A DNA stretch of 64,000 nucleotides, from NCBI GenBank assembly GCA_021812145.1, contig JAKAOM010000001.1:21898-85897 (forward strand). The letters are read 5' to 3'. Made by a program: the position numbers and the translations under genes. Shown here piece by piece: positions 9,827 to 63,664 of the stretch. Source of the stretch: Candidatus Micrarchaeota archaeon. GTDB taxonomy: Archaea; Micrarchaeota; Micrarchaeia; Norongarragalinales; UBA8480. Below the pieces are notes generated by a model. The model ran no database searches. It worked only from the letters and a program-made list of their open reading frames with translations, and was not told the DNA's origin. Positions within the stretch are counted from its first letter, which is position 1. The number at the start of each line of letters is the position of its first letter.

Positions 9827-9905
9827 TTTTTTTCCGCTTGTTTTTTTTTGCTTGTTTTACCTTCGGATAAGGTTTAAATATACTTACACTCCTATTCTTA
9901 TTTTG

Positions 9906-14838: not shown

Positions 14839-15204
14839 CTAAAATAGTTTTAGTTCCTTGAATTTTTTGAAGTGTTTTGTGTTTAGAGTGTACAGCTTGG
14901 CGTTATTGTTTATTGTTATAGCTGCTATCATGCTGTCCATTCTGAGTGTCCCTTCTATTTCTGATTTTACTTCAAGTTTTGCCGATAGTTCTGCGTCTTG
15001 TTTTGTGTAGTTAAGAATAGGTATCTGGCTTATTTTCGCAGTTTGTTTGGCGTATTTTATTGCTCCGTAAATAAATTCATGCAAGTTTAGCGTTGTGGTG
15101 CAGAATTGCTCGTTGCTGGCTATGATTTTATTTAACGCTTGCTCTCCAATCTCAGAGTTTTTATCGAATATTTCTATGAGAACGTCCGTGTCTAAAACTA
15201 TCAT
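14839..15204 (-). CDS. vapC: PIN-domain toxin VapC
   Basis: MIVLDTDVLIEIF… PIN N-terminus; 4-nt overlap with upstream small gene. Confidence 0.6.
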   Translation of the reverse strand: MIVLDTDVLIEIFDKNSEIGEQALNKIIASNEQFCTTTLNLHEFIYGAIKYAKQTAKISQIPILNYTKQDAELSAKLEVKSEIEGTLRMDSMIAAITINNNAKLYTLNTKHFKKFKELKLF

Positions 15205-16656: not shown

Positions 16657-16758
16657 GCAGGGGTGGCTGAGCCTGGTCAAAAGCGCAGGTTGATTTCTGT
16701 GCGACACTTAAGATCCTGTCTCTTAGCGAGTTCGAGGGTTCAAATCCCTCCCCCTGCA
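16657..16758 (+). tRNA. tRNA-Leu (probable anticodon GAG) with ~18-nt intron at non-canonical site in anticodon loop
   Basis: type-II tRNA: acceptor GCAGGGG/CCCCTGC+A, Leu-type D-loop GAGCCTGGTCAAA, long variable arm CTCTTAGCGAGTTC, T-arm GAGGG-TTCAAAT-CCCTC. 25 nt lie between anticodon stem halves GCAGG…CCTGT, and splicing to loop TTGAGAT gives GAG. Confidence 0.7.
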
Positions 16759-18157: not shown

Positions 18158-18259
18158 GCAGGGGTGGCTGAGACTGGTCAAAAGCGCAGGTTGATTTCTG
18201 TGCGACACTTAAGATCCTGTCTCTTAGCGAGTTCGAGGGTTCAAATCCCTCCCCCTGCA
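18158..18259 (+). tRNA. tRNA-Leu second copy (intron-containing), 1 mismatch to 16657..16758
   Basis: 102/102 alignment with a single D-loop difference (GAGCCTGG vs GAGACTGG). Confidence 0.65.
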
Positions 18260-28789: not shown

Positions 28790-30256
28790 TTGAAAAGTTT
28801 GAAAGTTTGCATTACCTACCCCCCTATTGATGAAAGTAAGGGTGTGCCGTTGTTGTCTCAGAACCGTCAGTTTCAGTACTTTAATTCTCCTACTTTTATC
28901 TATCCTATGATTCCTGCTTCAGCCGCTACTCTTTTAAAAAAGAATGGTTTTGAAGTGGTTTGGCTTGACGGCATCGCTGAGCGTTTGAAGCCTGAAGCGT
29001 ATTTGAAAATTCTTGAGAAGGAGAAGCCTGACTTGGTTTTTATTGAAACCAAAACTCCTGTGGTGAAAAAGCATTGGTTGTGGATTGAAAAGATTAAGAA
29101 TGCGGTTCCTAAAGTCAAGGTGGTTTTGGCAGGCGATCATGTTACTGCTTTGCCTGAAGAGTCTTTCAGCAATTCAAGCGTTGATTTTATTCTAGCCGGG
29201 GGGGATTTTGATTTTCTTTTGCTTAATTTAGCGAGTTTTTTGACTGGAAAAACAAAAAAATTGGAAGGTGGGATTTGGTTTAGAAAAGGCAAGGTTTTGA
29301 AAAGCAGTGGAATACCGGTTCAGAATCACGATTTGAATTCAATTCCTTTTATCGACCGTGTTTTGACTAAGTGGAGGCTTTACGCTTATGATAATGGTAA
29401 TTTCAAGAAAACTCCTGGAACTTACACAATGGTTGCAAGGGATTGTTGGTGGAGGAAGAACGGTGGCTGCACTTTTTGCAGTTGGACTACTCTCTACAAG
29501 AGTTTTAAATCCAGGACTCCTGAAAGTCTTTTTGAGGAAGTTAAATATCTAGTTGATACTTTTCATTTCAAGGAGATTTTTGACGATTCAGGAAGTTTCC
29601 CTGCTGGGGTGTGGATTGAAAAATTCTGCAATCTTATGATAGAAAGCGGCTACAATAAAAAAGTAACTTTAGGCTGTAATATGCGAGTTAATGCTTTGAA
29701 TCAAAAACAATACAATTTGATGAAGAAAGCTGGGTTTAGGTTCCTGCTTTACGGGGTCGAAAGCGCTAGCCAGAAAACGCTTGACAGAATAAACAAAGGC
29801 ACAAAAGTTGAAGATACGGCTAAAGCTTGCATGATGGCTAAAAAAGCTGGTTTGGAACCTCATTTGACAGTTATGTTTGGATATCCATGGGAGACTAAAA
29901 CAGACATGTATAATACTGTAAAAGAAGTAAGGGAGATTTTCAGGGAGGGTTGGGCGGACACTCTTCAAGCCACTATAGTCATTCCTTACCCCGGAACAAG
30001 GCTTTTTGACGAGTGCAAAAAGAACAAGTGGCTCAAGACAACAAACTGGGATGAATATGATATGAGAGCGCCTGTAATGAAAAGCAAGGCAGGAGATGAA
30101 GAAATAAAAAAATCCGTTCAGGATTGCTATAAAGTTTTCATGACTCCAAGATATGTTTTAAGAAAGATTGTTGGAATTAGGAGCAAGGAGGATTTGAAGT
30201 TTATCAAGAAAGGGGTTAAATCAGTTTTAGGTCATTTGAAAGACTTTTCAGGTTGA
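28790..30256 (+). CDS. B12-binding-domain radical SAM enzyme
   Basis: N-terminal cobalamin-binding Rossmann-like domain, Cys cluster CWWRKNGGCTFC, radical-SAM core YGVESASQKTLDRINKG. Confidence 0.55.
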   Translation: MKSLKVCITYPPIDESKGVPLLSQNRQFQYFNSPTFIYPMIPASAATLLKKNGFEVVWLDGIAERLKPEAYLKILEKEKPDLVFIETKTPVVKKHWLWIEKIKNAVPKVKVVLAGDHVTALPEESFSNSSVDFILAGGDFDFLLLNLASFLTGKTKKLEGGIWFRKGKVLKSSGIPVQNHDLNSIPFIDRVLTKWRLYAYDNGNFKKTPGTYTMVARDCWWRKNGGCTFCSWTTLYKSFKSRTPESLFEEVKYLVDTFHFKEIFDDSGSFPAGVWIEKFCNLMIESGYNKKVTLGCNMRVNALNQKQYNLMKKAGFRFLLYGVESASQKTLDRINKGTKVEDTAKACMMAKKAGLEPHLTVMFGYPWETKTDMYNTVKEVREIFREGWADTLQATIVIPYPGTRLFDECKKNKWLKTTNWDEYDMRAPVMKSKAGDEEIKKSVQDCYKVFMTPRYVLRKIVGIRSKEDLKFIKKGVKSVLGHLKDFSG

Positions 30257-30272
30257 TTTGAGGTAGTTTTAT

Positions 30273-31103
30273 ATGAAAAAAGCTTTGATTACTGGAATAA
30301 ACAAATCAATTGATAAAATTTATTCAAAAAAATGGCTGGATAATGCATTGAAAGAGGATGAATTTATAAATAAACCCTATTTAGAATTTACAAACTATAA
30401 TTCATATTCTGAATTAAATAAATTAGTCAAAATTGTTGAATTAGTTGAGCTCATGCAAATCAAGAAAGGGGTGAAACCAATTAAAATTAATATTCTTGAA
30501 ATAGGTTGTGGAACTGGAAATATTTGTATCCCTTTAGCGTCCAAGGGGTATAATGTTATTGGCATAGACCTGAACAAAAACGCAATTACTAAAGCAAATC
30601 AAATAAAGAAATCTAAAAAGTTAAATAATGTAAATTTTTTCGTTAAAAATACTTCTGAATATTTTTGTAGCGATTCTATTAAAAAATTTGATATTATTAT
30701 TGCAAGTGATATTTTAGAGCATTTACAAAATCCAATTAATATTTGTACATCCATCTTTGATAATTTAGAAGGTGGTGGTTTTTTCATTGTGACAATTCCA
30801 AATGGATTAGGCTTATCTGAATTATTAATAAATAATTTTTCAAAAAACGTAAGAAAGATTTTAGGCGAAGTTGTTGATGACGGTTATAATCATATTCAGA
30901 GATTTACTATAAATAAAATAAACCTATTACTAACTAAGAGTGGTTTTAAACAAATTAAGTTTATTTGTAATATTGATTTTATTACCTTTTTTCCGTTTAT
31001 AAATAGATCTATTCTTGCAAGGATTGATTTTAAGATTAGTAAATTAATACCTACTTTTTTAGCTAATAGGTGGATTTTTTTAGCAATAAAAACTGATGAT
31101 TAA
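30273..31103 (+). CDS. class I SAM-dependent methyltransferase
   Basis: ILEIGCGTGNICIPLASKGYNVIGIDLN motif I/II. Confidence 0.55.
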   Translation: MKKALITGINKSIDKIYSKKWLDNALKEDEFINKPYLEFTNYNSYSELNKLVKIVELVELMQIKKGVKPIKINILEIGCGTGNICIPLASKGYNVIGIDLNKNAITKANQIKKSKKLNNVNFFVKNTSEYFCSDSIKKFDIIIASDILEHLQNPINICTSIFDNLEGGGFFIVTIPNGLGLSELLINNFSKNVRKILGEVVDDGYNHIQRFTINKINLLLTKSGFKQIKFICNIDFITFFPFINRSILARIDFKISKLIPTFLANRWIFLAIKTDD

Positions 31104-31106
31104 AAA

Positions 31107-32306
31107 GTGGCAATATCTAAAAAATTGACTGTTGGTTTCGTTTCTACTTTCACCCCTGAAAGTAATTATTCTCAATTTTTATCAGAGTCTATCTATAAAT
31201 CAAAACAAAATGACCTTAAACTTATAGCCTACGCACCTTTACATGAAAATGTTTCAAATCTTAGGGTTGGTTTAAAAAAGAAAATTTGGAATTATTTTTG
31301 GTATCCACTTCAAATAGCATTTCATTCCTTTAGAGATAATATTGATATAATACACTTCCAGTATGAGTTTAATATGTATGGTTCTATGATTTTTTCTTCT
31401 TTTTTTCCACTTGCGTTACTACTTCAAAAATTAATCAGAAAAAAAGTAGTAACAACAGTTCATGTTGTAGTGTCTCAAAATGAAATTGATGAAGATTTTA
31501 AATCTACATTCAACGCAAGTTTGTTACCTAGTGCGCTAATAAAGACGTGGTTTTACATTAATTATTTTTTTATAGGGTATATATCGGATACAATTATAGT
31601 ACATTCAGAATGTTTTAAGGAAACACTTGAAAGAGAGTATAAAATTGATAAAAACAAAATAATAGTTTTGAATCACGGAATTCCATCTTATAATAATAAA
31701 GATAAAAAGTTAAATTTGTTTAAAAAACTTATACATAATTACAAAAATAAAAAGGTAATATTATCTTTTGGATACATTACAAAAAGAAAGGGCCTGGATT
31801 ATTTAATAAAAGCCTTTGAAAAAATAAACAAAAAATACAATGAGGTTATTTTAATAATTGCAGGTAATGTATTAATACATGAAAAGAAATATATTGAAAC
31901 ACTTAAAAAAAAAATTGTTGATATTCCAAATATCTTAATAATAGATAGATTTCTAACACTTGATGAAATAAAGGCACTATATTCTAATAGTTACATTTCT
32001 GTTTTTCCATATACTTATTCAATCTCTGCAAGTGGAACAACCGCGTTATCATTTGCTTTTTCAGTTCCATTAATTGTTACAAATTTGGGAAGTTTTAAAG
32101 AGGATATTGAAGAGACTGATTGCGGCATACTAGTCAACAAAAAAAACGCCCATGATTTAGAAAAAGCAATTGAGAAATTATTGACAAACAAAAAAGTTTA
32201 TAAAAAAATAAAATATAAAATGAATATTGTCAAAAAAGAAAGATCTTGGAGCAATATCGCAATTCAAACAATAAATTTATATAAGAATAATTTGGATATT
32301 AATTAG
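31107..32306 (+). CDS. GT4-family (GT-B) glycosyltransferase
   Basis: GYITKRKGLDYLIKAF…ILIIAGN…FPYTYSISASGTTALSFAFSVPLIVTNLGSFKE. Confidence 0.6.
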   Translation: MAISKKLTVGFVSTFTPESNYSQFLSESIYKSKQNDLKLIAYAPLHENVSNLRVGLKKKIWNYFWYPLQIAFHSFRDNIDIIHFQYEFNMYGSMIFSSFFPLALLLQKLIRKKVVTTVHVVVSQNEIDEDFKSTFNASLLPSALIKTWFYINYFFIGYISDTIIVHSECFKETLEREYKIDKNKIIVLNHGIPSYNNKDKKLNLFKKLIHNYKNKKVILSFGYITKRKGLDYLIKAFEKINKKYNEVILIIAGNVLIHEKKYIETLKKKIVDIPNILIIDRFLTLDEIKALYSNSYISVFPYTYSISASGTTALSFAFSVPLIVTNLGSFKEDIEETDCGILVNKKNAHDLEKAIEKLLTNKKVYKKIKYKMNIVKKERSWSNIAIQTINLYKNNLDIN

Positions 32307-32346
32307 GCAATAATACCTATTTTACTTAATTTAAAGATGTTTAAAA

Positions 32347-33057
32347 ATGAATTTAAATAAAATATTTATGAATATATATTTGAGAATTAGAAATTTAGAC
32401 AACAATATGTTTAGAGATTTAATTTTTAAAATTTATTCAGATTTGATATATTTACACCACTTTATACTCAATTCTAAATACTTTTATATTGATGGGAAAA
32501 AATATACTTATTTCTCATCACCGTACTATCAAACATTGGCAACGGAAAGATGTATTGAAATACCGTTTGTACTCTCTTTTATAAATAATAATTCAAAAAC
32601 AAATACTCTAGAAATTGGTAACGTCCTATCTAACCATATCTCATTTAAACATGACGTATTAGACAAATATGAAATTGCTAAGGGAGTTATTAATGAGGAT
32701 GTAGCATATTATAATTTCAAAAAAAAGTATGATTTGATATTATCAATTTCTACTTTGGAGCATGTGGGTTTTGATGAACCTGAACATGATGCTGAAAAGG
32801 TTATAATTGCAATCAAAAATTTAATTAATTCATTGGATAAAAAAGGGATTTTAATAATTAGTGTTCCTCTAGGCTATAATCCGGTTATAGATAAACTTAT
32901 ATTAAGAAATACTTTTAAATTTAAAAAATATTTTATGATTAAAACTTCATTTATGAATACTTGGAAACAAGCAAATATTAGCGAAGCTATGAATAAAAAA
33001 TACGGCAGTAAATATCCATTTGCTAATTCTATTGCTTTTTTATTGTACTATAAATAA
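32347..33057 (+). CDS. methyltransferase-like protein
   Basis: LEIGNVLSNH…DLILSISTLEHVGFDE… resembles Methyltransf_11/23 fold but lacks a clear GxGxG. Confidence 0.3.
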   Translation: MNLNKIFMNIYLRIRNLDNNMFRDLIFKIYSDLIYLHHFILNSKYFYIDGKKYTYFSSPYYQTLATERCIEIPFVLSFINNNSKTNTLEIGNVLSNHISFKHDVLDKYEIAKGVINEDVAYYNFKKKYDLILSISTLEHVGFDEPEHDAEKVIIAIKNLINSLDKKGILIISVPLGYNPVIDKLILRNTFKFKKYFMIKTSFMNTWKQANISEAMNKKYGSKYPFANSIAFLLYYK

Positions 33058-35380
33058 GTATATACAAAATACAAAAAATAAATGTTAGTCCAGATATAAT
33101 ATTTCCAATATAAAATAACGATTGTGGAACAAAATAAAGAGTAATTGTAAAACTATTTTTATTAATCATATTTGGATTAATATACCATCCGTTTGCATAT
33201 CCATTTGCAATAAAATGATTATCACTGAGCGGTGAATAAAATAAATATTTAATATCCGTTAAGTCAAAATTTGCAGTTGAACTTACCTCTTTAATTTTTC
33301 CATTATTATACTCTTGCTCAGTTCCAGATTCAATCATGTTATTTTCGATATAAGCGTTCCATTGTGGGTTATATGCTTGGTTTAAAATTAAGAAAAATGG
33401 ATGAGTTGCATTTTCAATTGAGACAATATACTTGGTTGGATTCACTTCTTGAAAAATTATTTTTGGAATGAAACTTTCATTTGTAGAATTTATCATAGGA
33501 ATTTTATCTAAAACCGTTTGATTTTGTAATATAAACACTTGATAATTATCTTCATTATTTTTTAAAGAATTAAAATAATTACTTATATTATAAGTTATAC
33601 TTAATTTATTAGATACATAAATCCTAGGCACAAATGCTTTATTTTCCCATAAGGATATGTTTTCAAATTTTTTTATCAATTGTATATTAGATGCATTATT
33701 TAAGTAATCCTCAACTTTCGTATAATTCCATTCATTTGAATTTGGACTAAATATTGGCATTACGTCCTTTCTAAGTAGAATATATTTAACATTATAAAAT
33801 GCTAGAATATTAGCGATTATATTACTGTCATTTCCTGAATATACTATTTTTTCAATTGTTGAGACTTCAGTATTCGATATTGATTCAAATGAAATTGCAT
33901 TAATTCCTGCGCTTAGAGTTGGATCTCCTCCTTGATCTTCATTTTGATATTGTGTTTTTAAATAAAGTGGAGAGCTGGTCATAGGAAGAGGTAATACTCT
34001 AAATTGTGAACTATCGTTAAGTATATATTTAATTATGTTACTATAACCTGGTGAAATATTGAAAGAGTCAAGTAAAAAAACATTATCTTTAATTTGTGTT
34101 TGCGTACTAAGATTACCTGTCAACCATGGCGAAACCCAGATTAACAAACCAATCATTAGTACTATTTCTACAAGAATTATTTTAGATTTTCTTTTAGTCT
34201 CTATAATTTTTGAAATTATAAAAAAAGTTCCAAGTCCAATTATAATAGATATTGTAAAAGCAAGTAATACTAAAATGTGTTGTGGGCTTCTAAATAAAAC
34301 CATTAATGGAATATTTTCATAAATCCAAATCCTTAGATTGCCAATTAGAGTTATAGAAGTTGACATGAATAATGAAATAAGGAATAAAAAAATCCAAAAT
34401 AAACTTTTGGTTTTTTTGTTGGTATATAAAAAAAATATTGAAATTATTATTATACTGTATGCGCTAATAAACCATATTAATTGAAAATTTGGATTAATAA
34501 GATATTTAAAAAAATCTGTAAAGTAACCTAAACCAGCAAAAGCGTCTTGAATTGAAGGAATATTATTTGTTATTGTTGAAATTAATAGCGTATTATCTAA
34601 TGAAATACTTTGTTGTAGTGTTTGTGGTATAAGTATAATCCAGTACATATTTAAAAGAAAAAATATAATTATACTTTTTACAATATTTTTGTAAATCGTT
34701 TTTATTTTTTTTGTGAATAAAACATAAAGAACAAATACTAATGTTATTAAAAATAAATTCTGAAGTGAAGAACTTATTATCGTCATAGTAATTGCAAATA
34801 AGAGAACGTCAATAAAGTTAGGTTTGTCTGAACATACTTTTATTAGAAAATAAAAAGCCAGTGGAAAAAATGCATACGTAATAAACTGCGTAGTTGCACC
34901 TCCTATTATTTCATTGAAAAGGAAGGGAGATAATGAATAAAAAACAGCACCAAAAAATTGAGCAAAGAGTTTATAAGAATTGTTTTTAACTTCAAAGTCT
35001 TCACTAATAATTTTTCCAATTAGATAAAACATGGTAATGCCTGACAATAGTATTGTAATAAATACTAACAGTTTTGATATGATTTCTCCATTAAATCCTA
35101 AATAACCCGTACTAGTATATACCATTATAAGTGGAATAAAACTCGCTCCCAGTGGATTAAAATAACCAAGACCAGAATCAACCCATAAATAAGGTGTTTG
35201 AATAAATATTGCCCGTATTTCTTCATTTAGCGGTGGAATTGACCAATCCCAATGATGCCCTAATGTTCCATTATTTAAAACTATACCTCGCAGTACAAAA
35301 AAAGATATAAAAATAAAAAATACAATTGGAAAAATTAATTTTAAAAATTGTTTAAATTTTTTTATATTAGCTATTTCCAA
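33029..35380 (-). CDS. large polytopic membrane protein (possible GT-C-like glycosyltransferase) with C-terminal soluble domain
   Basis: 783 aa, >12 predicted TM helices in first 430 aa, Asn-rich extracytoplasmic C-terminal domain, final TM. Confidence 0.3.
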   Translation of the reverse strand: MEIANIKKFKQFLKLIFPIVFFIFISFFVLRGIVLNNGTLGHHWDWSIPPLNEEIRAIFIQTPYLWVDSGLGYFNPLGASFIPLIMVYTSTGYLGFNGEIISKLLVFITILLSGITMFYLIGKIISEDFEVKNNSYKLFAQFFGAVFYSLSPFLFNEIIGGATTQFITYAFFPLAFYFLIKVCSDKPNFIDVLLFAITMTIISSSLQNLFLITLVFVLYVLFTKKIKTIYKNIVKSIIIFFLLNMYWIILIPQTLQQSISLDNTLLISTITNNIPSIQDAFAGLGYFTDFFKYLINPNFQLIWFISAYSIIIISIFFLYTNKKTKSLFWIFLFLISLFMSTSITLIGNLRIWIYENIPLMVLFRSPQHILVLLAFTISIIIGLGTFFIISKIIETKRKSKIILVEIVLMIGLLIWVSPWLTGNLSTQTQIKDNVFLLDSFNISPGYSNIIKYILNDSSQFRVLPLPMTSSPLYLKTQYQNEDQGGDPTLSAGINAISFESISNTEVSTIEKIVYSGNDSNIIANILAFYNVKYILLRKDVMPIFSPNSNEWNYTKVEDYLNNASNIQLIKKFENISLWENKAFVPRIYVSNKLSITYNISNYFNSLKNNEDNYQVFILQNQTVLDKIPMINSTNESFIPKIIFQEVNPTKYIVSIENATHPFFLILNQAYNPQWNAYIENNMIESGTEQEYNNGKIKEVSSTANFDLTDIKYLFYSPLSDNHFIANGYANGWYINPNMINKNSFTITLYFVPQSLFYIGNIISGLTFIFCILYILIYSTIKKQ

Positions 35381-35396
35381 TCAATTTTCACCTATT

Positions 35397-36098
35397 TTAA
35401 TTATCCTTATTTGTTTTTAATTTACAAAGAAAGATAATCCCTCTTGAAAATAATGATGGCATTGAATAAGTCAGTTCATCCCACACCCTTTTTGGAATCA
35501 ATGATAATCCTTTTTCAATTTTATCACTAACTCCAAGATGGATCCAATACCTTCTACTTATTATTTTAAAATGTTTTTCTATAAACTCATTATCTTGTTT
35601 TATTGTTGGAAAGTGAAGGTGATAATCCGCAGCAAAACCTGTTGCGTCTACGCTATTTCCAAACACCATTTTTATCCTATGATATATGGTGCTCTCATTA
35701 GGTAAAGATATAAGAACCACTCCCTTTTTGTTTAATAATTTTTTTGTTTGCAATATCAACTTTTCAGGATCTTTTAAATGTTCTAAAATTTCAGCTAAAA
35801 TTATAATATCAAATTTTTCATTAAGCTTAATTTTTTCATTTTCTAAATTTACCTTAAAAACTTTAAAAGCACCTCTTTTCTTTGCAATTTTAAGCGCCTT
35901 TTTATCAAAATCCACTCCATAATACTTAATGTTTTTATGACCAAAAATTTTTATTGTATCTCCCATATAGCAACCAATATCTAAAACTTTTACATCTTTT
36001 TTTATAAATGGGTTTAAAAGAGACTTGAAAATTTTAAATCTCTCTTTTGCGTATTTATCATTCAATATATTTTTATATACCATTTTATTGTAATTCAT
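35397..36098 (-). CDS. class I SAM-dependent methyltransferase
   Basis: VKVLDIGCYMGDTIKIF…IIILAEILEHL. Confidence 0.5.
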   Translation of the reverse strand: MNYNKMVYKNILNDKYAKERFKIFKSLLNPFIKKDVKVLDIGCYMGDTIKIFGHKNIKYYGVDFDKKALKIAKKRGAFKVFKVNLENEKIKLNEKFDIIILAEILEHLKDPEKLILQTKKLLNKKGVVLISLPNESTIYHRIKMVFGNSVDATGFAADYHLHFPTIKQDNEFIEKHFKIISRRYWIHLGVSDKIEKGLSLIPKRVWDELTYSMPSLFSRGIIFLCKLKTNKDN

Positions 36099-36102
36099 TA
36101 TT

Positions 36103-37131
36103 TTATCTCTTTATTTGATTTTTAAATAAATTTTCTGTTAATCCAACAATTGTGCCTCTTATCCCTTTCAGATAGCTTATTTGTTTTGTACTTATAAATT
36201 TATATACTAAAAATAAATTTAAAAATATAAGGTATGAAAAAAATCTTATTGATTTATCAATTGTATTCAGTTTAATGTTAATAAAATAAAAATTAATAAA
36301 ATTTAATGTTCTTTCATATGAATTTGACCTATTTGCAAACACTCCGTTTTGATCTACAAGGTGTTTAACTACTGCTTTTGGATTAAAAATTATCTTATAT
36401 CCTTCCCTTATTATTTTAAACGAAACGTCTGCTTCTGAGTAGTCACCAATCCCTAGATATTTTCTGTCAAAATAACCTATCTTTATTAAAATATGTCTTC
36501 TTATAGCCATGTTGCAGGCTTCATGATGATCTACGTTAATTGACTTTTTAAATTTACAATTTTCTTTATAGTTAGATCCGACAGAAAAAGCTCCGCTCCT
36601 AAAAAATTTTCCAATGCTTTTTTCTTTACCCTCAAGAAAATAATTAAAATATATTTTGCCTAAAATATGCCAAAAAATATTTCCATTTTGCAGTTTTTTT
36701 TGAAAATAAAACAAATCTCTTTTATTTTTTAAATTTTCGGGTATTATTGTTGGACCCGTTACTCCCCCTATCTTTTTCGATTCATTAAATGTTTTTACAA
36801 TTTCATTAATCCATTCTTTGTCTGCGACTATATCATCATCCGTTCTTACTATAATTTCTCCTTTTGAAACTAATATTCCTTCGTTTATTGCATTTACTAA
36901 TCCTTTTTCCTTCTGTTTTATTATTTTAATTTTTAATTCTTTATGATTCTTTATTACTTTTTTTGTGTTATTTGTATCTCCTCCTTCTACTATAACGATT
37001 TCAAAATTTTTAAACGTTTCTTTATTCAATGATATAAGGCATCTTTCTAAACTTTGTTCTCTATTCATAGTGGGTATTATTATTGAAACTTTAGGTATAT
37101 TTTTATTCATCTTTAACCCAACCTCTAGCAT
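36103..37131 (-). CDS. GT2 glycosyltransferase
   Basis: PKVSIIIPTMNREQSLERCL…VIVEGGDTNN…DDD. Confidence 0.55.
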   Translation of the reverse strand: MLEVGLKMNKNIPKVSIIIPTMNREQSLERCLISLNKETFKNFEIVIVEGGDTNNTKKVIKNHKELKIKIIKQKEKGLVNAINEGILVSKGEIIVRTDDDIVADKEWINEIVKTFNESKKIGGVTGPTIIPENLKNKRDLFYFQKKLQNGNIFWHILGKIYFNYFLEGKEKSIGKFFRSGAFSVGSNYKENCKFKKSINVDHHEACNMAIRRHILIKIGYFDRKYLGIGDYSEADVSFKIIREGYKIIFNPKAVVKHLVDQNGVFANRSNSYERTLNFINFYFINIKLNTIDKSIRFFSYLIFLNLFLVYKFISTKQISYLKGIRGTIVGLTENLFKNQIKR

Positions 37132-38161
37132 TGCCTATTTTTTTTGTTCCTTTAAGTTTGTTTAAAAAATACGATATTTCTCTTTTTTTAATTATCTTTG
37201 GTAAAATTTCACTATCGCTTACTACTCTATTTTTTTGTATTCTTCTTCTTTTTTCTAGTATCCTTTTTAAATTAGTTAGATTCCAAACCAATCCTAAAAT
37301 TATCCATTTTGAACTTTTGAATTTTCTTTTTGAAAAAAGAAAAGTTGCAATTCCAAACCATAAAAAAATATGAATTGTTAAAATTTTAATTAGGTTTTTA
37401 AATTCTAAATTTTTAATCAAAGTTTGTACATAATTTTTTGCACCATGAAATTTAACAAAATAATTTATGTCATTTTTTAGAATAATTGAGCTAGTTCCAA
37501 ATCTATGATAAATTATTGAGTTTGGTATCAGCATAACTTTAGATCCTTTAAGCCAAATTCTCCAACATAGGTCGCTCTCTTCAACATATATAAAATAATC
37601 ATCATCAAACCCGTTTATTTCATCTAACGCGTCTTTTCTTGCGATCATACCTGCAGATTTTGCAGCAAAAATCTCCTTAATTTCATCATATTGCCCATTA
37701 TCATTTTCCTTTCCAGCTTCAACAATATTAACTAAAAATCCATTTTGACCTATATATTCTCCTACAGAATCTATTTTGTTTGTTTTACTTATAATAAGTT
37801 TTAACTGTCCAGCTCCTACATTAGGATTATTTTCAAGAAATTTTACCGCGTTTTTTAACCACATTGAAGTTACAGTTGTGTCATTATCTAAAAAAACTAC
37901 GTACTTTCCTTTTGCTTCTTTGATTCCTTCATTTCTTGCGGATGAGGGGCCAATATTTTTGTCATTTTGAATAATTTTTAATTTTAATTTTTTAATTGAT
38001 TTTTTAATATACTCAACGCTTCCGTCAGTTGAACCATTATCTATAACAATAACCTCAAAATTAGTGTATTTTGTAGTATATAATGATTCTAAGCATTCTT
38101 TTAAATAAATTTTACCATTATAATTTACTATTACAACAGAAACAAGTGGTTCTTTATTCAT
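37103..38161 (-). CDS. GT2 glycosyltransferase
   Basis: PLVSVVIVNYNGKIYLKECLESL…VIVIDNGSTDGS…FLDNDT. Confidence 0.6.
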   Translation of the reverse strand: MNKEPLVSVVIVNYNGKIYLKECLESLYTTKYTNFEVIVIDNGSTDGSVEYIKKSIKKLKLKIIQNDKNIGPSSARNEGIKEAKGKYVVFLDNDTTVTSMWLKNAVKFLENNPNVGAGQLKLIISKTNKIDSVGEYIGQNGFLVNIVEAGKENDNGQYDEIKEIFAAKSAGMIARKDALDEINGFDDDYFIYVEESDLCWRIWLKGSKVMLIPNSIIYHRFGTSSIILKNDINYFVKFHGAKNYVQTLIKNLEFKNLIKILTIHIFLWFGIATFLFSKRKFKSSKWIILGLVWNLTNLKRILEKRRRIQKNRVVSDSEILPKIIKKREISYFLNKLKGTKKIGNARGWVKDE

Positions 38162-38318
38162 TTATATCTCTCACATACTTTTTTTAATAAAGTTGTTTTT
38201 TAAAAGTTTATCCTGTTTTTATCTGATGATATTGCTTTATATTTTTGTAATGAAAAGCTTTTTAAAACTCTTTTTAGGATATGTTTTGTTAAAATGGTTG
38301 AGCTTTCAATTTCAAGCT

Positions 38319-58033: not shown

Positions 58034-60340
58034 ATGAAAAACGTTTATTGGTTTAGCGAGATTTCTAAAACAGATATTGGAATTGCAGGAGGCAAGGGTG
58101 CTAATTTGGGAGAGATGTTTCAGGCTGGTTTGCCTGTTCCTGATGGCTTTATTGTGGGGAGCGAGTCTTATTTTGATTTTATCCGGAGTACGGGCGTTGA
58201 CAAGATAATCAAGAGTTCTGAGGAGGGTTTGAATGTGGAGGATGAGTTGGCTTTGAATAAGGTCAGCGATTATATTAAGAGCGTTATTGTTGGAACTGCT
58301 GTTTCGAATGATTTGAGGGTTGATATTGTTAAAGCTTACAACAAGCTTTGCGGGGTGGATTTGATACCTTCTTCTTCTCAGGAGGTTTTGGTTGCAGTGA
58401 GAAGCAGTGCTACTGCAGAAGATCTTCCCGAAGCCAGTTTTGCAGGACAGCAGGCTACTTTTGTTAACGTTAAGGGCGCTGACGCTCTTGTGGAAGCGGT
58501 TAGGAAGTGCTGGGCTAGCTTGTTTGAGGCTAGAGCAATTTATTACAGGAAATTGAATAATTTTGACGATTTGAGGGTTGGTATTGCGGTTGTTGTTCAG
58601 AGAATGGTGGAGAGTGAGAAGAGCGGGGTTATGTTCAGCGTTAATCCTGTGTCAGGAGAAAACGTTATTATGATTGAGGCTGGTTTTGGTTTGGGGGAGG
58701 CAGTGGTTAGCGGTGCCATTAATCCGGATAGGTATATAGTGGATAAGAATTCTTTCAAGGTTTTGAATGTTAACATTGCAAGGCAGGAGGTTATGCTTGT
58801 TAAGGGAAAGGTTAAAGACGAGTGGCTGGAGGTGCCAGAGGAGTTGCAGGAGAAGCAGAAGCTTTCTACTTCTGAAATTGCCGAGCTTGCGGGTTTGGGG
58901 GTTAAGATAGAGCAGCATTATGGTTTTCCGCAGGATATGGAGTGGGCGGTTGAAGGAGGAAAAGTTTTCATTGTTCAGAGTCGTGCTATTACAACTCTTA
59001 AAAAGATAGGTGTTGATGTTTCGAAAAGCAGTGCTTCGGCAGGTGGTGAAAGTGTGGCTGAGAATGTTTTGATTCAGGGTTTTGGCGCTTCTCCTGGAGT
59101 TGGTTCCGGAGTTGCTAGGGTTATTCTTGATGTTAAGGAGTTGTACAAATTGAAGAATGGAGAGGTTTTGGTTACCAAGATGACCACTCCTGATTTTGTT
59201 CCTGCGATGAAGAGGGCCAGCGCTATAGTTACTGACGAGGGAGGAATTACCTGCCATGCTGCCATTGTTTCAAGAGAGCTGGGAGTTCCGTGCATTGTTG
59301 GAACTGAGAAGGCCACCAAGATTTTGAAGGATGGGGAGATGATTACTGTTGATGCCGGCAGTGGAGTGGTTTTGGAGGGTGAAGTTAAGAGGGAGGGTCC
59401 GGTTAAGGAGGCTGTTGCCGTGGGAGGGGGCAGGGTTTCTACTGGAACCAAGATTTACGTTAATCTTGCAGAGCCTGAGAGCGCTGAGAAGATTGCTGCC
59501 ATGAATGTTGACGGGGTTGGCTTGTTGAGGGCTGAGTTTATGATCGCTGGTTTCGGCAAGCACCCTAAAATGTTGTTAAAAGAAGGAAGGGGGCAAGAGT
59601 TTGTTGACATGCTTGTTAAGGGTTTGAGGAAGTTCTGCGCTGCTTTCAGCCCCAGGCCTATTATCTACCGAGCTACTGATTTTAAGACGAATGAGTACCG
59701 CAATCTTGAAGGCGGCGCCGAGTTTGAGCCTCAGGAGGATAATCCTATGATTGGTTTTAGAGGTTGTTTTCGTTATGTTAAGGATCCCGAGGTTTTTAAC
59801 TTGGAGTTGGAGGCGGTTAGAAAAGTGAGGGAGCAGGGTTTCAAGAATTTGTGGCTGATGATTCCTGTTGTTAGAACCGTTCATGAGTTCAAGTTGGTTA
59901 AAGGTTTGGTGGAGAAGGGAGGTTTGTTTCAATCGCATGATTTTAAGTTAGGTATTATGTGCGAGGTTCCGTCAACCGTGATTTTAGCTGAGGAGTTCTG
60001 CAAGGCTGGAGCTGATTTTTTCAGTATTGGCTCCAATGATTTGACCCAGCTTACTTTGGGTGTTGATAGGGATAATCCTATTGTGGCTGAGGATTTTGAC
60101 GAGCGGGATGAAAGCGTTTTGCGTTCTATAGAGCACGTTATTAAGACTTGCCACCGTTTCAACGTTAAGGTTGGTATTTGCGGTCAGGCGCCTTCTGAGT
60201 ACCGAGAGTTTGCTGAGAAGCTTGTTGGTTTCGGAATTGACAGCATTTCTGTTAATCCTGATGTTATCGACGTTACCAGAAACGTGGTTGCCAGCGCTGA
60301 GTTGAGAGTTTTGCTTGACAAGGCGGTTGGCAAGGATTGA
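58034..60340 (+). CDS. ppsA: phosphoenolpyruvate synthase
   Basis: IGIAGGKGANLGEM…; phospho-His domain ITCHAAIVSRELGVPCIVG; C-terminal PEP-utilising TIM barrel. Confidence 0.9.
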   Translation: MKNVYWFSEISKTDIGIAGGKGANLGEMFQAGLPVPDGFIVGSESYFDFIRSTGVDKIIKSSEEGLNVEDELALNKVSDYIKSVIVGTAVSNDLRVDIVKAYNKLCGVDLIPSSSQEVLVAVRSSATAEDLPEASFAGQQATFVNVKGADALVEAVRKCWASLFEARAIYYRKLNNFDDLRVGIAVVVQRMVESEKSGVMFSVNPVSGENVIMIEAGFGLGEAVVSGAINPDRYIVDKNSFKVLNVNIARQEVMLVKGKVKDEWLEVPEELQEKQKLSTSEIAELAGLGVKIEQHYGFPQDMEWAVEGGKVFIVQSRAITTLKKIGVDVSKSSASAGGESVAENVLIQGFGASPGVGSGVARVILDVKELYKLKNGEVLVTKMTTPDFVPAMKRASAIVTDEGGITCHAAIVSRELGVPCIVGTEKATKILKDGEMITVDAGSGVVLEGEVKREGPVKEAVAVGGGRVSTGTKIYVNLAEPESAEKIAAMNVDGVGLLRAEFMIAGFGKHPKMLLKEGRGQEFVDMLVKGLRKFCAAFSPRPIIYRATDFKTNEYRNLEGGAEFEPQEDNPMIGFRGCFRYVKDPEVFNLELEAVRKVREQGFKNLWLMIPVVRTVHEFKLVKGLVEKGGLFQSHDFKLGIMCEVPSTVILAEEFCKAGADFFSIGSNDLTQLTLGVDRDNPIVAEDFDERDESVLRSIEHVIKTCHRFNVKVGICGQAPSEYREFAEKLVGFGIDSISVNPDVIDVTRNVVASAELRVLLDKAVGKD

Positions 60341-60372: not shown

Positions 60373-61698
60373 TTATCTGTATTTCAGTAGGGCGTTTTCT
60401 TTAAGGCCCTGTATTGCGTTTGTTGTTGTTACCGTTCTTGAGAGGCTTGGCGAGTGTTTTTGTGGTTTTTTAGCCAGTATTAGCGTTACCTCGTCGTTGT
60501 TTTTGAGGGTGGTTTCTTTTCCAGCGTTTTTGTTGTTTATTATCCCGCCTTGTACGTAATGTCCTAGGTGGATGCTTTGGTTTTTTTGTTTTGGCGTGTT
60601 GTATGCCGCGTCTAGAATTGTTGAGTTTTTTGGCAGGTTGAGCTCGTGGATTTTTCCTTCGGCGTTTACTTTTATGTTTATCAGGTCGTACTTGTTTGAC
60701 TCGTCTATTAACTGCATTGCCTCTTTTTCCTTGTTTTGGTCATACAGCACTATTGCCTTTTTTGCCACTTCTATTTTTGGGTCTAGCTGGCGGTTTAGCC
60801 CGCTTTTGTAGAACGCGTGTTTTATGTTTTCGTTTTCTTGTATTTCTTCATGCATTTTTTTTGTTCTAATCTGCACTTCGAATGGCGTTCCGTCTTTCTT
60901 TTTCATTGTCAAGTGCAGTGATTGATATCCGTTTGGTTTTTGGTTTTTTATGTAGTCCTTTTCTTCAATCGTTTCACCGATTTGTTTCACTATTTTTTTT
61001 GCTTTTTCTATTTCTTCGTTTTTTTCAACTATTATTCTCATTCCTATATAGTCCTTTACTTCTCTTTTTTTGTAGAATATGCTTGCCGGGCTTTTTACCC
61101 TTGACTCTATTTGAAAGTTAATTCCATCGCTTGTTAGTTTTTCGTTGATTTCGTTTCTTATTACGTGCATTTTTTCCTCAAAGTTTTGTTTTTGTATGAA
61201 TTTTTTTATTTTATCGTATTGTTTTGGTTCTTTTATTTGGAATGCCTTGTTTATCATTTCGTTTGCCATTTGATGCATTCCTAGAAGCTCTGCTATTGGC
61301 GCGTATATTTTCAGCGTTCTTTCTGCTGCATTGTTTTTTTGTTGGGTGTTTGTTTTTGGGTTTGTTATTCTTTCCCTTTGGTCGATCAATCGTAGTAGGA
61401 ATATTTTAGGATTTAGTGTAACGTCTTCTAGGTTTGATTTAAACTCGTTGTTTTCTTGTTTTATGAAATGTTGCTGGAAGTGGTGGACGAGTTCTCTAGC
61501 TTCCTGGTCTACTTTGTAGTTTGATTGCTGTGGAATTTCATAGAATTTAACTCCGTGAAATAGTGCGGCGGTTATCAGAGCCGCGTCGGCTTTTTTTTCA
61601 TATAGCGTTTTGGCAGTGTTTATATAATGAGTGTAGTCGTCTCCGTATGCTTGCTTGGCTTGGTTTATTTGTTTTTTGTATTCTTCTTCAAATGTCAC
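60373..61698 (-). CDS. RelA/SpoT-homolog (RSH): degenerate HD, (p)ppGpp-synthetase domain, TGS domain
   Basis: synthetase block DYIGMRIIV…KPNGYQSLHLTM…EVQIRTKKMHE; HD motif degraded to AALFHGVKF; C-terminal TGS-like …HLGHYVQGGIINNK…. Confidence 0.6.
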   Translation of the reverse strand: MTFEEEYKKQINQAKQAYGDDYTHYINTAKTLYEKKADAALITAALFHGVKFYEIPQQSNYKVDQEARELVHHFQQHFIKQENNEFKSNLEDVTLNPKIFLLRLIDQRERITNPKTNTQQKNNAAERTLKIYAPIAELLGMHQMANEMINKAFQIKEPKQYDKIKKFIQKQNFEEKMHVIRNEINEKLTSDGINFQIESRVKSPASIFYKKREVKDYIGMRIIVEKNEEIEKAKKIVKQIGETIEEKDYIKNQKPNGYQSLHLTMKKKDGTPFEVQIRTKKMHEEIQENENIKHAFYKSGLNRQLDPKIEVAKKAIVLYDQNKEKEAMQLIDESNKYDLINIKVNAEGKIHELNLPKNSTILDAAYNTPKQKNQSIHLGHYVQGGIINNKNAGKETTLKNNDEVTLILAKKPQKHSPSLSRTVTTTNAIQGLKENALLKYR

Positions 61699-61724: not shown

Positions 61725-62570
61725 TTATTTTTTCCCCTGCGTTTTTGCTTTCCCGTTTGAGCCGCAGACCTTTATTCTGTCTATACAGGTTTTTTTCATG
61801 GCTTCCCTTGCTTTTGTCAGGTGAGTCCTTGGGTTTATGTCCGGATTTTCGTTTAGCGATTTTTTAAGCGCAAGTGTGAATGATTTTCTTAGTTGCGTGT
61901 CCATGTTTATCTTCCTTATTCCTAGCTTAACTGCCTTTTTGATTTGTTCGTCTGAAACTCCCGAGCTTCCATGCAGCACAAGCGGGGCCGGAATTTCCTC
62001 ATTTATCTCTTTAAGCAGTTGGAAGTTAAGCTTGAGTTTTTTTTCACTCCACCCATGGCTGTTTCCTATGCTTACTGCGAGTGCGTCGGGTTTGGTGAGT
62101 TTGTAGAAGCGCAGCGCGTCTTCCGGACTGGTGTATTTTGCCTCTTTTTCTTCAACGTAGTCTTCTTTTCCTGCCAGCGCGCCTATTTCAAGTTCTATTG
62201 GAAGGCCTGGCGCTGCTTTTTTTGCTTGCAGCGATATTTTCACGTTTTCTTCAAATGGTTTGGATGATCCATCGAGCATTATGGAAGAGAATCCGTTTTT
62301 AAAGCATTTTTTTACCGTTTCAAGGTTTTTACCATGGTCTAGGTGCAGACCTACTGGTATTTTGGTTTTGCTTATTGCTTTTAGCGCGTAGGCTGCGAAT
62401 TCTTCCAATCCAGCGTATTCAAGAGCGCTTTCTGAAGCTTGGATTATTAATGGTGATTGTGTTTCTTCGCCTGCCTGTATTATTGCTTGTATTGTTTCTG
62501 AGTTGTAGGCGTTGAACGCTGGCACTGCGTAGTCGTTTTTAAGTAGTGTTCTAAGGTTTGCCAGCGTCAT
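61725..62570 (-). CDS. fba: class II fructose/ketose-bisphosphate aldolase
   Basis: PVGLHLDHGK…MLDGS…VLHGSSGVSDEQIKKAVKLGIRKINMDTQL. Confidence 0.8.
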   Translation of the reverse strand: MTLANLRTLLKNDYAVPAFNAYNSETIQAIIQAGEETQSPLIIQASESALEYAGLEEFAAYALKAISKTKIPVGLHLDHGKNLETVKKCFKNGFSSIMLDGSSKPFEENVKISLQAKKAAPGLPIELEIGALAGKEDYVEEKEAKYTSPEDALRFYKLTKPDALAVSIGNSHGWSEKKLKLNFQLLKEINEEIPAPLVLHGSSGVSDEQIKKAVKLGIRKINMDTQLRKSFTLALKKSLNENPDINPRTHLTKAREAMKKTCIDRIKVCGSNGKAKTQGKK

Positions 62571-62590: not shown

Positions 62591-63664
62591 TTAGAGAAAG
62601 TCAATTTCTCCTACGTCGAAGTCGTTTCTTTTTTGTTTGTCCTGCTTTACCTGTTTTCCAAGCATGTACGGACTTTTGATTCCTGTGAAGATTGCTATTG
62701 CTTCCAGTTTTCCTTCGAATGCCGGGTCTACTCTAGCGCCCCATATTACGCTTGCGTTAGGGTCTACTCTTTCTGTAAGCATTTCTCCCACTTGGTTGCA
62801 TTCTCCAAGAGTCATGTCGCTTCCTCCGGTTATGTGTATAAGCACTCCGGTTGCTCCGGTGTAGTCTACGTCTAGTAGGGCGTGGTTGAGTGTGTTTTCC
62901 ACTACTTCCTTTACTCTGTTTGTTCCTTTTGACTCGCCTACTGCTATCATTGAAACTCCCCCGTTGCTCATAACCGCTTTGACGTCTGCGAAGTCAAGGT
63001 TTATGAGGCTTGGTGTGGTGATTGTTTCTGTTATTCCTCTCACCGCTCTTGCTATGACCTCGTCTGCCACATTGAACGCCTGGTCTATTGGCAGGTTTGG
63101 AACTAACTGCACTAGCCTGTTGTTGTCTATTACGATTATCGTGTCCGACTGGTTTTTGAGGTTTTCTAGTGCCGCGTCTGCTTTTTCCAATCTAGCTCTT
63201 TCAAGTGCGAACGGGTAGGTTACTATTGATATTACGATAGCTCCTTGCTTTTTAGCTATTTCAGCTATTACTGGCGCGCTTCCGCTTCCAGTTCCTCCTC
63301 CCATTCCTGCTGTAAGGAATATCAAGTCGGCGTTTGACAGTATTTTTTCCAGCGCGTCTCTTGAAACGTCTGCTGCTTTCATTCCGATTTCAGGGTAGCC
63401 TCCTGCTCCGAGTCCTCTGGTAATGCTAGCTCCTATTAGAACTTTTTTAACGCTTTCAGATATTGTTGTTAAGTGCAGTCTGTCGGTGTTTATAGCAACC
63501 ATGTCTGCTCCTTTAATTCCCATTCTAGCTAGTCTGTTGACTGAGTTGCACCCTCCACCTCCTGTTCCTATAACCATTATTTTAGGGGTTTCAAAAAAAT
63601 CCTCCCTTTCTTTTTTGTTGGGAGTGCTTCTGCTTCTAAGGGCTTCTCCTACTATATCCTCCAT
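62591..63664 (-). CDS. ftsZ: cell division protein FtsZ
   Basis: GTGGGGCNSVNRL, tubulin signature LTAGMGGGTGSGSAP. Confidence 0.9.
   Translation of the reverse strand: MEDIVGEALRSRSTPNKKEREDFFETPKIMVIGTGGGGCNSVNRLARMGIKGADMVAINTDRLHLTTISESVKKVLIGASITRGLGAGGYPEIGMKAADVSRDALEKILSNADLIFLTAGMGGGTGSGSAPVIAEIAKKQGAIVISIVTYPFALERARLEKADAALENLKNQSDTIIVIDNNRLVQLVPNLPIDQAFNVADEVIARAVRGITETITTPSLINLDFADVKAVMSNGGVSMIAVGESKGTNRVKEVVENTLNHALLDVDYTGATGVLIHITGGSDMTLGECNQVGEMLTERVDPNASVIWGARVDPAFEGKLEAIAIFTGIKSPYMLGKQVKQDKQKRNDFDVGEIDFL

Follow-up and report, generated by a model that had tools for sequence, protein, structure and literature searches.

The rsh gene and its domain architecture

Our study concerns a gene for a RelA/SpoT homologue (RSH), here called rsh, which lies near the high end of a stretch of 64 000 nucleotides (nt) from contig JAKAOM010000001.1 (GenBank assembly GCA_021812145.1, positions 21 898 to 85 897 of the forward strand), referred to throughout as the window. 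A first-pass annotation, made from the sequence alone, had placed the gene at positions 60373–61698, and these coordinates match exactly a minus-strand entry of the open reading frame (ORF) list. The strings that it quoted from the protein, DYIGMRIIVEK, KPNGYQSLHLTMKK, FEVQIRTKKMHEE and ITAALFHGVKFYE, were likewise all found in the translation. The gene begins with a GTG codon 26 nt past the stop codon of the neighbouring fba gene, and the position of this start is backed by the N-termini of the orthologous proteins. The encoded protein comprises a pseudo-hydrolase (pseudo-HD) domain, a synthetase (SYNTH) domain, a TGS domain and a short helical tail, arranged as follows.

60373..61698, minus strand: rsh, a short RelA/SpoT homologue of 441 amino acids (aa) with a GTG start (ORF list, Pfam, NCBIfam)
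61129..61698, minus strand: pseudo-hydrolase (HD-like) domain, residues 1–190, all-helical (subthreshold HD_4 match, residue map, structural model)
61552..61557, minus strand: codons of H48-G49, the degenerate HD motif, reading H-G (translation AALFHGVKF, aligned to H77-D78 of RelSeq)
60799..61128, minus strand: SYNTH (nucleotide pyrophosphokinase) domain, residues 191–300 (PF04607, RelSeq residue map)
60688..60798, minus strand: helical linker between SYNTH and TGS, residues 301–337 (AlphaFold2 secondary structure and confidence)
60469..60687, minus strand: divergent TGS (beta-grasp) domain, residues 338–410 (subthreshold PF02824 match, structural model, alignment)
60373..60468, minus strand: C-terminal tail, residues 411–441, with the stop codon (alignments, helices of the model, end of the TIGR00691 match)

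The Pfam family RelA_SpoT (PF04607) matched residues 200–299 with 72.1 bits against a cut-off of 27 (E 5.6e-20), while the two flanking domains fell just under their thresholds, HD_4 at 24.7 bits (cut-off 27.2, residues 13–141) and TGS (PF02824) at 21.2 bits (cut-off 22.2, residues 348–407). The NCBIfam model of the long enzymes, TIGR00691 (spoT_relA), gave 155.8 bits, far under its cut-off of 499.2, and matched from model position 16 to position 431 of 687; as the match ends there, the protein covers the first two-thirds of a long RSH. Model positions 432–687 were unmatched, and the protein gave no match to PF19296, PF13291 or ACT. The helical, zinc-finger (RIS/CC) and ACT/RRM domains of long RSHs are thus absent from a protein that stops at residue 441. 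An assignment of rsh to the long RSHs, as the initial description implied, holds in that an HD-like domain precedes SYNTH, but not in its C-terminal half, since the protein ends after the TGS domain and one or two helices, without the ribosome-docking domains. Its tail carries the motif QKHSPxLxRxVxTxxAxxGLKEN, whose homologue in long RSHs is the beginning of the helical domain.

An AlphaFold2 model built from an alignment of 68 sequences (predicted local distance difference test 87.2, predicted template modelling score 0.79) is helical in the N-terminal domain and alpha/beta in SYNTH, and continues through a helical linker into a beta-grasp (residues 339–408) and terminal helices at residues 417–421 and 426–440, with the segment 290–305 of low confidence or disordered. 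When this model was compared with the Protein Data Bank (PDB) by Foldseek, the top matches spanning the whole query were B. subtilis Rel (6yxa), SpoT (7qpr) and ribosome-bound RelA (5iqr and 5kpv), with E values of 1e-19 to 1e-17. Crystal structures of Rel N-terminal domains were next in the ranking, and small alarmone synthetases (SAS) and CapRel were far lower.

Catalytic residues of the synthetase and pseudo-hydrolase domains

Residues were assigned by aligning RelSeq with representative RSHs and with the orthologues of rsh, which together with it form the clade described below. The RelSeq sequence used was confirmed in register against PDB 1vj7 with no indels, and supplies the numbering. 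All of the RelSeq synthetase residues examined are kept in the query: R241, K243 and K251 correspond to R200, K202 and K210; the Mg-binding D264 to D216 and R269 to R221; K304, N306, Y308, Q309 and H312 to K254, N256, Y258, Q259 and H262; the catalytic E323 to E274; and Q325 and R327 to Q276 and R278. Across the clade, the only departures were R241D in cluster P0005 and a conservative R269K in clusters P0005 and P0126. This conservation, together with the PF04607 score above cut-off, bears out the intact synthetase first proposed. Absence of the catalytic acidic residues had been named as the observation that would speak against it, and both D216 and E274 are present.

The hydrolase domain presents a different picture. 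Here H53, H77, D144 and N148 of RelSeq are kept (H24, H48, D106 and N113), but D78 is replaced by G49, E81 by F52 and D82 by Y53, and R44-K45 reads K-Q. Glycine stands in place of D78, an Mn ligand, in every clade sequence examined, including P0126, and also in the sister sequence P0214, whereas the E81-D82 pair is F-Y in the four closest sequences and S-Y or S-D in P0126 and P0005. The degenerate H-G motif (AALFHGVKF) noted originally was thus confirmed against RelSeq, and the catalytic Glu-Asp pair was found to be lost as well. With D78 and the E81-D82 pair gone, it is very unlikely that the domain has hydrolase activity, as judged from the alignment. The label 'RelA-like', which had been attached to the protein, fits this combination of a dead HD domain with an intact synthetase. 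It does not fit the charge motif at residues 245–248, which in place of EXDD reads E-E-K-D; the K-D is of the bifunctional RXKD type and is kept across the clade, while the first two positions vary.

Remodelling of the TGS domain

A clear TGS-like domain had also been described, and the beta-grasp of the predicted fold agrees with this, although the sub-cut-off Pfam score, the loss of a key histidine and an insertion of 6–11 aa do not. The motif x-(I/V)-H-(S/D)-(D/E)-(I/L)-G is kept in all of the long RSHs and short non-archaeal forms aligned, and its histidine is H420 of B. subtilis Rel. We take the equivalent residue of E. coli RelA to be H432, which reads the 3'-CCA of deacylated tRNA. In the clade of rsh this position is a proline (Pro369, in 'N-x-P-K') followed by the clade-specific insertion, and the FTPKGD strand motif upstream of it is also lost; the sister sequence P0214 has glutamine in its place. 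With this histidine lost and the helical, zinc-finger and ACT/RRM domains missing, deacylated tRNA is unlikely to activate the enzyme on the ribosome in the manner of RelA.

These data bear directly on whether rsh encodes a true stringent factor of the RelA type, with a TGS domain that senses deacylated tRNA, either on the archaeal ribosome or free, so that the enzyme fires on amino-acid starvation. The architecture derived from long RSHs, the retention of a TGS-like beta-grasp and an HD domain that is dead, as in RelA, are all consistent with such a role, as is an effect of ppGpp on archaeal EF-1alpha in vitro (Martucci 2012, as cited in PMC12542715). We nevertheless regard it as decidedly unlikely, as the domains that bind the ribosome are missing, proline has replaced the CCA-sensing histidine beside the insertion, and E-E-K-D stands in place of EXDD. 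The archaeal ribosome, moreover, differs from the bacterial docking site.

The ftsZ-fba-rsh locus and its host

Three neighbouring genes define the surroundings of rsh, and they are those named in the first-pass annotation.

61725..62570, minus strand: fba, class II fructose-bisphosphate aldolase (PF01116, 301.6 bits), co-directional with rsh and immediately upstream of it, with a gap of 26 nt
62591..63664, minus strand: ftsZ (TIGR00065, 397 bits), first gene of the co-directional ftsZ-fba-rsh cluster, with a gap of 20 nt to fba
58034..60340, plus strand: ppsA, phosphoenolpyruvate synthase (NF005057, 952 bits), convergent with rsh across a T-rich spacer of 32 nt

Archaeal markers in the window include a CDP-archaeol synthase (CarS), an S-layer protein with S_layer_C (PF05124), a GCD14-type tRNA methyltransferase and two intron-bearing tRNA genes, described further below. 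Genes for L10e and SMC also lie within it, and those for archaeal release factor 1 (aRF1), TruD and arginyl-tRNA synthetase lie just past it on the same contig. A search with aRF1 found three relatives of the same lineage at 91, 87 and 82 % identity and nothing further above 61 %; at or below that level the named matches were all Micrarchaeota, Micrarchaeia or Norongarragalinales. This suggests that the host lineage is a deep branch of the Micrarchaeota (DPANN). The sole named orthologue of rsh, MCL5011741.1, was submitted as a 'hypothetical protein' from 'Candidatus Marsarchaeota archaeon', and this label was considered and rejected as a guide to host taxonomy, the aRF1 relatives outside the lineage being all Micrarchaeota or Norongarragalinales. 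The assembly that bears it (GCA_023474775.1, contig JAMCXP010000048.1; locus L093) encodes an aRF1 that is 91 % identical to that of the window organism, and the label is probably wrong.

A protein identical to the rsh product (P0001) was found on a 336-kb ENA contig and in GCA_027320585.1, and orthologues at 65, 44 and 36 % identity share the gene order ftsZ-fba-rsh. The syntenic contigs came from Logan (SRR10244963 and SRR12217122/3), NCBI (GCA_023474775.1 and GCA_964388435.1) and JGI (3300047584), so that with ENA and a total of three NCBI metagenome-assembled genomes the arrangement was recovered in independent assemblies from four sources. The fba gene is the partner of rsh in all of the clade loci, the intergenic gaps within the orthologous clusters are 14–68 nt, and a convergent ppsA is usual downstream (seen in L002, L093 and L094). 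Genes for L10e, SMC, aRF1 and TruD are found near rsh on orthologous contigs too.

This synteny effectively refutes the view that rsh stems from contaminating bacterial DNA, from a chimeric assembly or from a transfer in the very recent past, an explanation to which we give next to no probability. It could appeal to the bacterial identity of the nearest non-archaeal relatives and to a G+C content slightly under that of the neighbours. Against it stand the ftsZ-fba-rsh-ppsA context in assemblies from four sources, with aRF1, TruD, L10e and SMC on the same contigs, the identity of only ~30 % to the nearest bacterial protein, and the diversification of the clade in place to 36 % identity. The annotation had itself pointed to bacterial flanks on a contaminant contig as the finding that would undo its reading; the flanks proved to be archaeal, and syntenic in several independent assemblies.

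The fba gene has a history of its own. It is restricted to the lineage, with 83–89 % identity in the same six clusters and at most 53 % beyond them, where the named matches are mostly Firmicutes (Tissierellia/Clostridia) with one Woesearchaeota. This restriction agrees with a 2025 study in which class II fbaA entered the Micrarchaeota late by horizontal gene transfer (HGT; PMC12892359), and fba thus appears to be a second gain from bacteria, independent of that of rsh, within one operon-like cluster. Co-transfer of fba with rsh was weighed and dismissed, since the named relatives of fba belong mostly to the Firmicutes rather than to the Candidate Phyla Radiation (CPR), and the CPR rsh loci lack an adjacent fba. 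It is this difference between the apparent donors that argues against a joint arrival.

Some smaller features of these loci were also recorded. In one orthologous locus (L094, 6657–7300) rsh and ppsA are separated by an inserted pair of genes, for a PIN-domain toxin and a 76-aa partner, and the window itself has PIN-domain ORFs at 1405–1881 and 14839–15204. Just past the high end of the window (L003, 5978–7440) lie two adjacent Lon_C-only genes of 201 and 280 aa, and paired Lon_C genes are kept upstream of ftsZ in three clade loci. A scan for sigma-70 promoters and terminators returned fewer sites than shuffled sequences did, and the sigma-70 model does not apply to an archaeon.

Evolutionary rate and constraint

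A classical dN/dS ratio was not computable, as the orthologue pairs were either 99.6 % identical (two nonsynonymous differences and no synonymous ones) or saturated (pS 0.75–0.87). Proportions of nonsynonymous and synonymous differences (pN and pS) were compared instead, and rsh was set against its neighbours in the same genome pairs. In these pairs amino-acid identity was 95–99 % for FtsZ, 85–89 % for FBA, 86–88 % for PpsA and 36–65 % for the RSH, and dN was 0.01–0.035 for ftsZ, 0.06–0.10 for fba, 0.08–0.10 for ppsA and 0.23–0.56 for rsh. Within rsh, pN was 0.20 against a saturated pS of 0.87, or ~0.17–0.25 against ~0.8–0.96 by domain, and the pseudo-HD domain (pN 0.18) was as constrained as SYNTH. 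With the unsaturated dS of the neighbours (0.8–1.8) as the yardstick, a rough omega of 0.25–0.6 was obtained for rsh against 0.01–0.07 for the neighbours. As pN is far under pS in all three domains, rsh has been retained under purifying selection, yet it evolves much faster than its housekeeping neighbours. Its G+C content is 36.8 %, compared to 43–45.5 % in the immediate neighbours and a window mean of 38.6 %.

Such a rate raises the question of whether rsh is no more than the remnant of an old transfer, catalytically silent or in decay, kept as a scaffold or by chance and without any part in signalling. The dN of 4–6 times that of fba and ppsA, the rough omega, the HD_4 and TGS scores under the Pfam cut-offs, the R241D exchange in P0005 and the G+C content under that of the neighbours could all be read in this way. 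However, the ORF is intact in all of the ~14 members recovered, across a span in which synonymous sites have become saturated, and the catalytic SYNTH residues are unchanged even at 36 % identity, apart from the two exchanges given above. The low pN relative to pS extends to every domain, and the position in the genome is fixed. On this balance we consider a remnant improbable, with only a slight chance of being the right explanation.

Rarity, phylogeny and origin

A word-indexed search returned one identical cluster, three clusters at 62–65 % identity and one at 34 %, and then dropped to a tail at ~30 % headed by short proteins (476–493 aa) labelled Patescibacteria; the nearest bacterial protein is only ~30 % identical to the rsh product. 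When 1.84 billion cluster representatives were searched exhaustively with a HMMER profile, the clade was represented by only three clusters (P0001, P0005 and P0126), after which the score fell from 555 to 157 bits. The clade therefore comprises ~14 sequences in three clusters at 50 % identity. A profile search of genome contigs with the clade alignment gave no clade member among the matches listed, which were bacterial RSHs and one DPANN protein (L050, see below); bacterial RSHs fill this list because the back-translated motifs FEVQIRT and KDYI are universal.

A neighbour-joining tree was inferred with Kimura distances from 401 columns and 270 RSHs, with 100 bootstraps. The clade was monophyletic in 100 of 100 replicates, and P0214 was its sister in 85 of 100. 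This sister is a protein of 505 aa with an H-G motif, from a groundwater-metagenome contig on which it adjoins a fragment of an archaeal-type alanyl-tRNA synthetase (TIGR03683, 197 bits, against 107 for the bacterial alaS model) and a gene of the geranylgeranyl reductase family, a context that points to an archaeal host. Short forms made up 73 % of the wider tree neighbourhood, compared to 22 % of the data set, and the HD motif is degenerate in many of the short forms closest to the clade. Hosts of the nearest representatives outside the clade were inferred from gene context. Three were bacterial by this measure, namely P0127 (RadA/Sms, ClpB and S1), P0134 (PolA and DAGK_prokar) and P0180 (bL33, Fmt and MacB/FtsX), and with the P0170 cluster, labelled 'Candidatus Parcubacteria', all four of the group members checked were bacterial; the locus of P0129 (L088) has no Pfam-annotated neighbours and that of P0142 (L090) was uninformative. 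Independently of the tree, a comparison of group hidden Markov models (HMMs) gave the best score to the short pseudo-HD model for all seven archaeal proteins, and for the query the scores were 213 bits for this model, 187 for long RSHs and 169 for short forms with an intact HD domain.

These results are explained most economically if an RSH that was by then short and hydrolase-dead was taken up long ago from a CPR-like bacterium and, probably, passed on vertically thereafter. Horizontal acquisition had been suggested at the outset, and a bacterial origin is indeed the best-supported history; the event would, however, be old rather than recent, given the fixed position beside ftsZ and fba, the saturated synonymous sites and the archaeal sister. 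A fixed locus with synonymous sites at or near saturation indicates that rsh has long been in place. A separate, full-length RSH was found in a Nanobdellota contig (JBNJGI010000004.1, locus L050, 5737–7797) between genes for archaellins, GatE and TrmB, which shows that DPANN archaea have acquired RSHs more than once.

Predicted function

The nucleotides made by these enzymes, guanosine tetra- and pentaphosphate, or (p)ppGpp, are the master stress signal of bacteria and plastids. On balance we favour, with somewhat more confidence than doubt, the reading that rsh is a vertically inherited archaeal short RSH that is hydrolase-dead, probably makes (p)ppGpp, is probably not activated by the ribosome and descends from an ancestor of the CPR type. 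SYNTH would transfer the beta-gamma pyrophosphate of ATP to the 3'-OH of GDP or GTP, yielding (p)ppGpp that the pseudo-HD domain could not hydrolyse; the latter may persist as a structural or allosteric scaffold. Control would more likely be exerted through expression, or through intramolecular or ligand-mediated effects of the remodelled TGS and pseudo-HD domains, and the short gaps suggest that ftsZ, fba and rsh are co-transcribed. The ancestor would have been a short pseudo-HD RSH of the CPR/Patescibacteria kind, gained early in the Micrarchaeota lineage or earlier in DPANN and diverging fast thereafter. Translational GTPases are possible archaeal targets of the alarmone, and the EF-1alpha of Saccharolobus is altered by ppGpp in vitro (Martucci 2012, as cited in PMC12542715).

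Several observations weigh against this reading. No candidate hydrolase of the small alarmone hydrolase (SAH)/HD, Nudix or Ppx/GppA kind was found within the 64-kb window and a 10-kb extension, which are a fraction of the genome. A synthetase that lacks a hydrolase partner is usually toxic to bacteria (PMC3153485), and this implies either a hydrolase elsewhere, an activity that is low or tightly controlled, or a different product. No archaeon has yet been found to contain (p)ppGpp, and the system is treated as missing from archaea in reviews (PMC10249747, PMC12934967). The nonsynonymous rate of rsh could reflect relaxed constraint or a shifted function, and the case for co-transcription is built only on the gaps of 20 and 26 nt. 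As regards ancestry, the branches of the neighbour-joining tree are very long, so the placement of the sister and of the donor could be due to long-branch attraction, and the degenerate HD domains could have converged.

A different product is the second explanation that deserves attention. Here the enzyme would be active, but would make (pp)pApp from ATP or ADP, or would modify another 3'-OH such as the CCA end of tRNA, in the manner of toxSAS or CapRel, and its fast evolution would reflect a new role. Long RSHs can reportedly make pppApp. In keeping with such a shift, rsh is fast relative to its neighbours, no hydrolase partner was seen in the window and its 10-kb extension, the tRNA-sensing histidine is lost from a remodelled TGS domain, and PADLOC gave a weak match (47 bits) to the candidate defence protein PDC-S33. 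This match is confined to the shared SYNTH domain, however, and is weaker than those to Pfam (72 bits) and TIGR00691 (156 bits); CapRel is a poor structural match (rank 47, template modelling (TM) score 0.26); and rsh has no adjacent antitoxin-like gene, being part of a housekeeping cluster rather than a defence island. The guanine-stacking tyrosine (Y258) and the whole GDP/GTP-binding set of RelSeq are also kept. Another product is therefore unlikely in our estimation. A defence or toxin role in particular was examined and set aside, as a PADLOC match limited to SYNTH and a housekeeping context do not support it.

A broader proposal would extend the (p)ppGpp-synthetase reading to an archaeal-adapted family of alarmone synthetases, built from an H-G pseudo-hydrolase, SYNTH and a remodelled TGS domain. 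Its members would make (p)ppGpp or a related alarmone in the Micrarchaeota and in at least one further archaeon from groundwater, independently of the ribosome and as part of a conserved ftsZ-fba-rsh unit. We put this forward tentatively, as something rather doubtful in its full extent. Were it true, the alarmone level would be tied to cell division and central carbon flux, and functional signalling of the (p)ppGpp type would have been shown for the first time in Archaea. The gene offers a concrete and readily cloned test case for whether some archaea make an alarmone, and for how they would manage in the absence of the ribosome sensing and hydrolase of bacteria. It also adds a case of a bacterial signalling gene, probably derived from CPR, that has been kept long-term in DPANN, both groups being ultra-small episymbionts.

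Other features of the window

Away from rsh, an island of 8 kb at 30000–38200 has a G+C content of ~25 % against 38.6 % for the window and encodes GT2 and GT4 glycosyltransferases, S-adenosylmethionine-dependent methyltransferases and an orphan ORF of 783 aa (33029–35380). Its appearance is that of a surface-glycan gene cluster gained by lateral transfer, set in a broader region of glycosylation and S-layer genes. Two near-identical class II tRNA genes of 102 nt (16657–16758 and 18158–18259) each have a 16-nt insertion in the anticodon loop, as in an archaeal-type intron, and both were missed by ARAGORN in bacterial mode. The pair flanks a gene for an AAA_14/DUF4143 ATPase on the opposite strand (16786–18057), and the arrangement could reflect a tRNA-targeted insertion or a duplication. 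A T2SSE-type secretion or pilus ATPase of 1262 aa (22312–26100, minus strand) is split by an intein with a LAGLIDADG homing endonuclease. The protein encoded at 13630–14280 on the plus strand has a bacterial-type SLT lytic transglycosylase domain (111 bits) and might act on a bacterial or pseudomurein cell wall. Three large ORFs, at 1922–3985, 7947–9521 and 9852–13601 (687, 524 and 1249 aa), had no Pfam match at E ≤ 1e-5.

Comparison with known systems

Archaea were described in 2011 as having no long RSH and only sporadic SAS and SAH proteins (Atkinson et al. 2011), and reviews to 2023–2026 hold the (p)ppGpp system to be absent or unimportant in them. RelA/SpoT has since been reported in 69 % of Diapherotrites, 42 % of Woesearchaeota, 21 % of Pacearchaeota and 19 % of Nanoarchaeota genomes, with a predicted bacterial origin (Li et al. 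2021, PMC8407392), and a putative SpoT/RelA has been noted in Nitrososphaera viennensis. The remark in the first-pass annotation that such proteins are sporadic in archaea accordingly understates the published record, which stands at 19–69 % of genomes in four other DPANN phyla. The Micrarchaeota are not among the phyla listed by Li et al. and no H-G short form is described there, and a paper focused on the Micrarchaeota does not mention ppGpp, SpoT or alarmones. On sequence grounds, then, the rsh clade is a small, divergent and new subfamily within a well-known superfamily, and one that had gone unremarked in this phylum. Its significance is limited by the RelA/SpoT proteins already reported in other DPANN and in Nitrososphaera at the level of annotation, by the familiarity of the family and by a function that is predicted.

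The closest likeness is to the uncharacterized short RSHs of the Patescibacteria/CPR (P0127, P0134, the P0170 cluster and P0180), which have the same three-domain architecture in 450–506 aa, the same short helical tail and, like rsh, a degenerate HD domain with an intact synthetase set. They also provide the best group-HMM score and the nearest tree neighbourhood. The sequence P0142 reads H-H-G-R-Y where the rsh product reads H-H-G-F-Y, and scores 397 bits against TIGR00691, compared to ~150 for the rsh clade. Short forms outside the archaeal clade keep the CCA-sensing histidine and the FTPKGD strand, both lost from the rsh clade, and many carry a RelA-like E-R-D-D where the clade has x-x-K-D. 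The CPR short forms checked have bacterial hosts and unrelated gene neighbourhoods, and are ~26–30 % identical to the rsh product.

E. coli RelA (5iqr and 5kpv) likewise combines a pseudo-hydrolase, an active-looking synthetase and a TGS domain, and matches rsh in sequence (E 4e-20) and, across the whole query, in structure. It is longer, however, at 744 aa, and docks on the 70S ribosome through helical, zinc-finger and ACT/RRM domains that are absent here; it also has the EXDD motif and a CCA-reading TGS histidine where rsh has E-E-K-D and has lost the histidine. Bifunctional Rel proteins (RelSeq 1vj7, B. subtilis 6yxa and M. tuberculosis 5xnx) are the best matches in both sequence and structure, with identical synthetase residues and a shared K-D, but D78, E81 and D82 are replaced and R44/K45 changed in rsh, and their regulatory C-terminal half is missing from it.

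Among archaeal proteins, the DPANN RSHs of Li et al. 2021 (PMC8407392), of which L050 is an example, are also bacterial-type RSHs in DPANN genomes with a predicted bacterial origin. The L050 protein differs from that of rsh in being encoded by an ORF of 686 aa, with an intact HD_4 domain (143 bits, H-D and E-D present), a canonical TGS domain and a long C-terminal extension without Pfam matches, and it falls outside the rsh clade. The SAS proteins (RelQ and RelP, and 'divRel' of Methanosarcina acetivorans; Atkinson et al. 2011) resemble rsh as synthetases without a hydrolase in the same protein, and the archaeal case has been ascribed to HGT. They are single-domain proteins of ~200–250 aa with only weak matches to rsh (E 1e-5 to 1e-3, TM score ~0.25), whereas rsh, with its 441 aa, pseudo-HD and TGS domains, groups with sequences derived from long RSHs.

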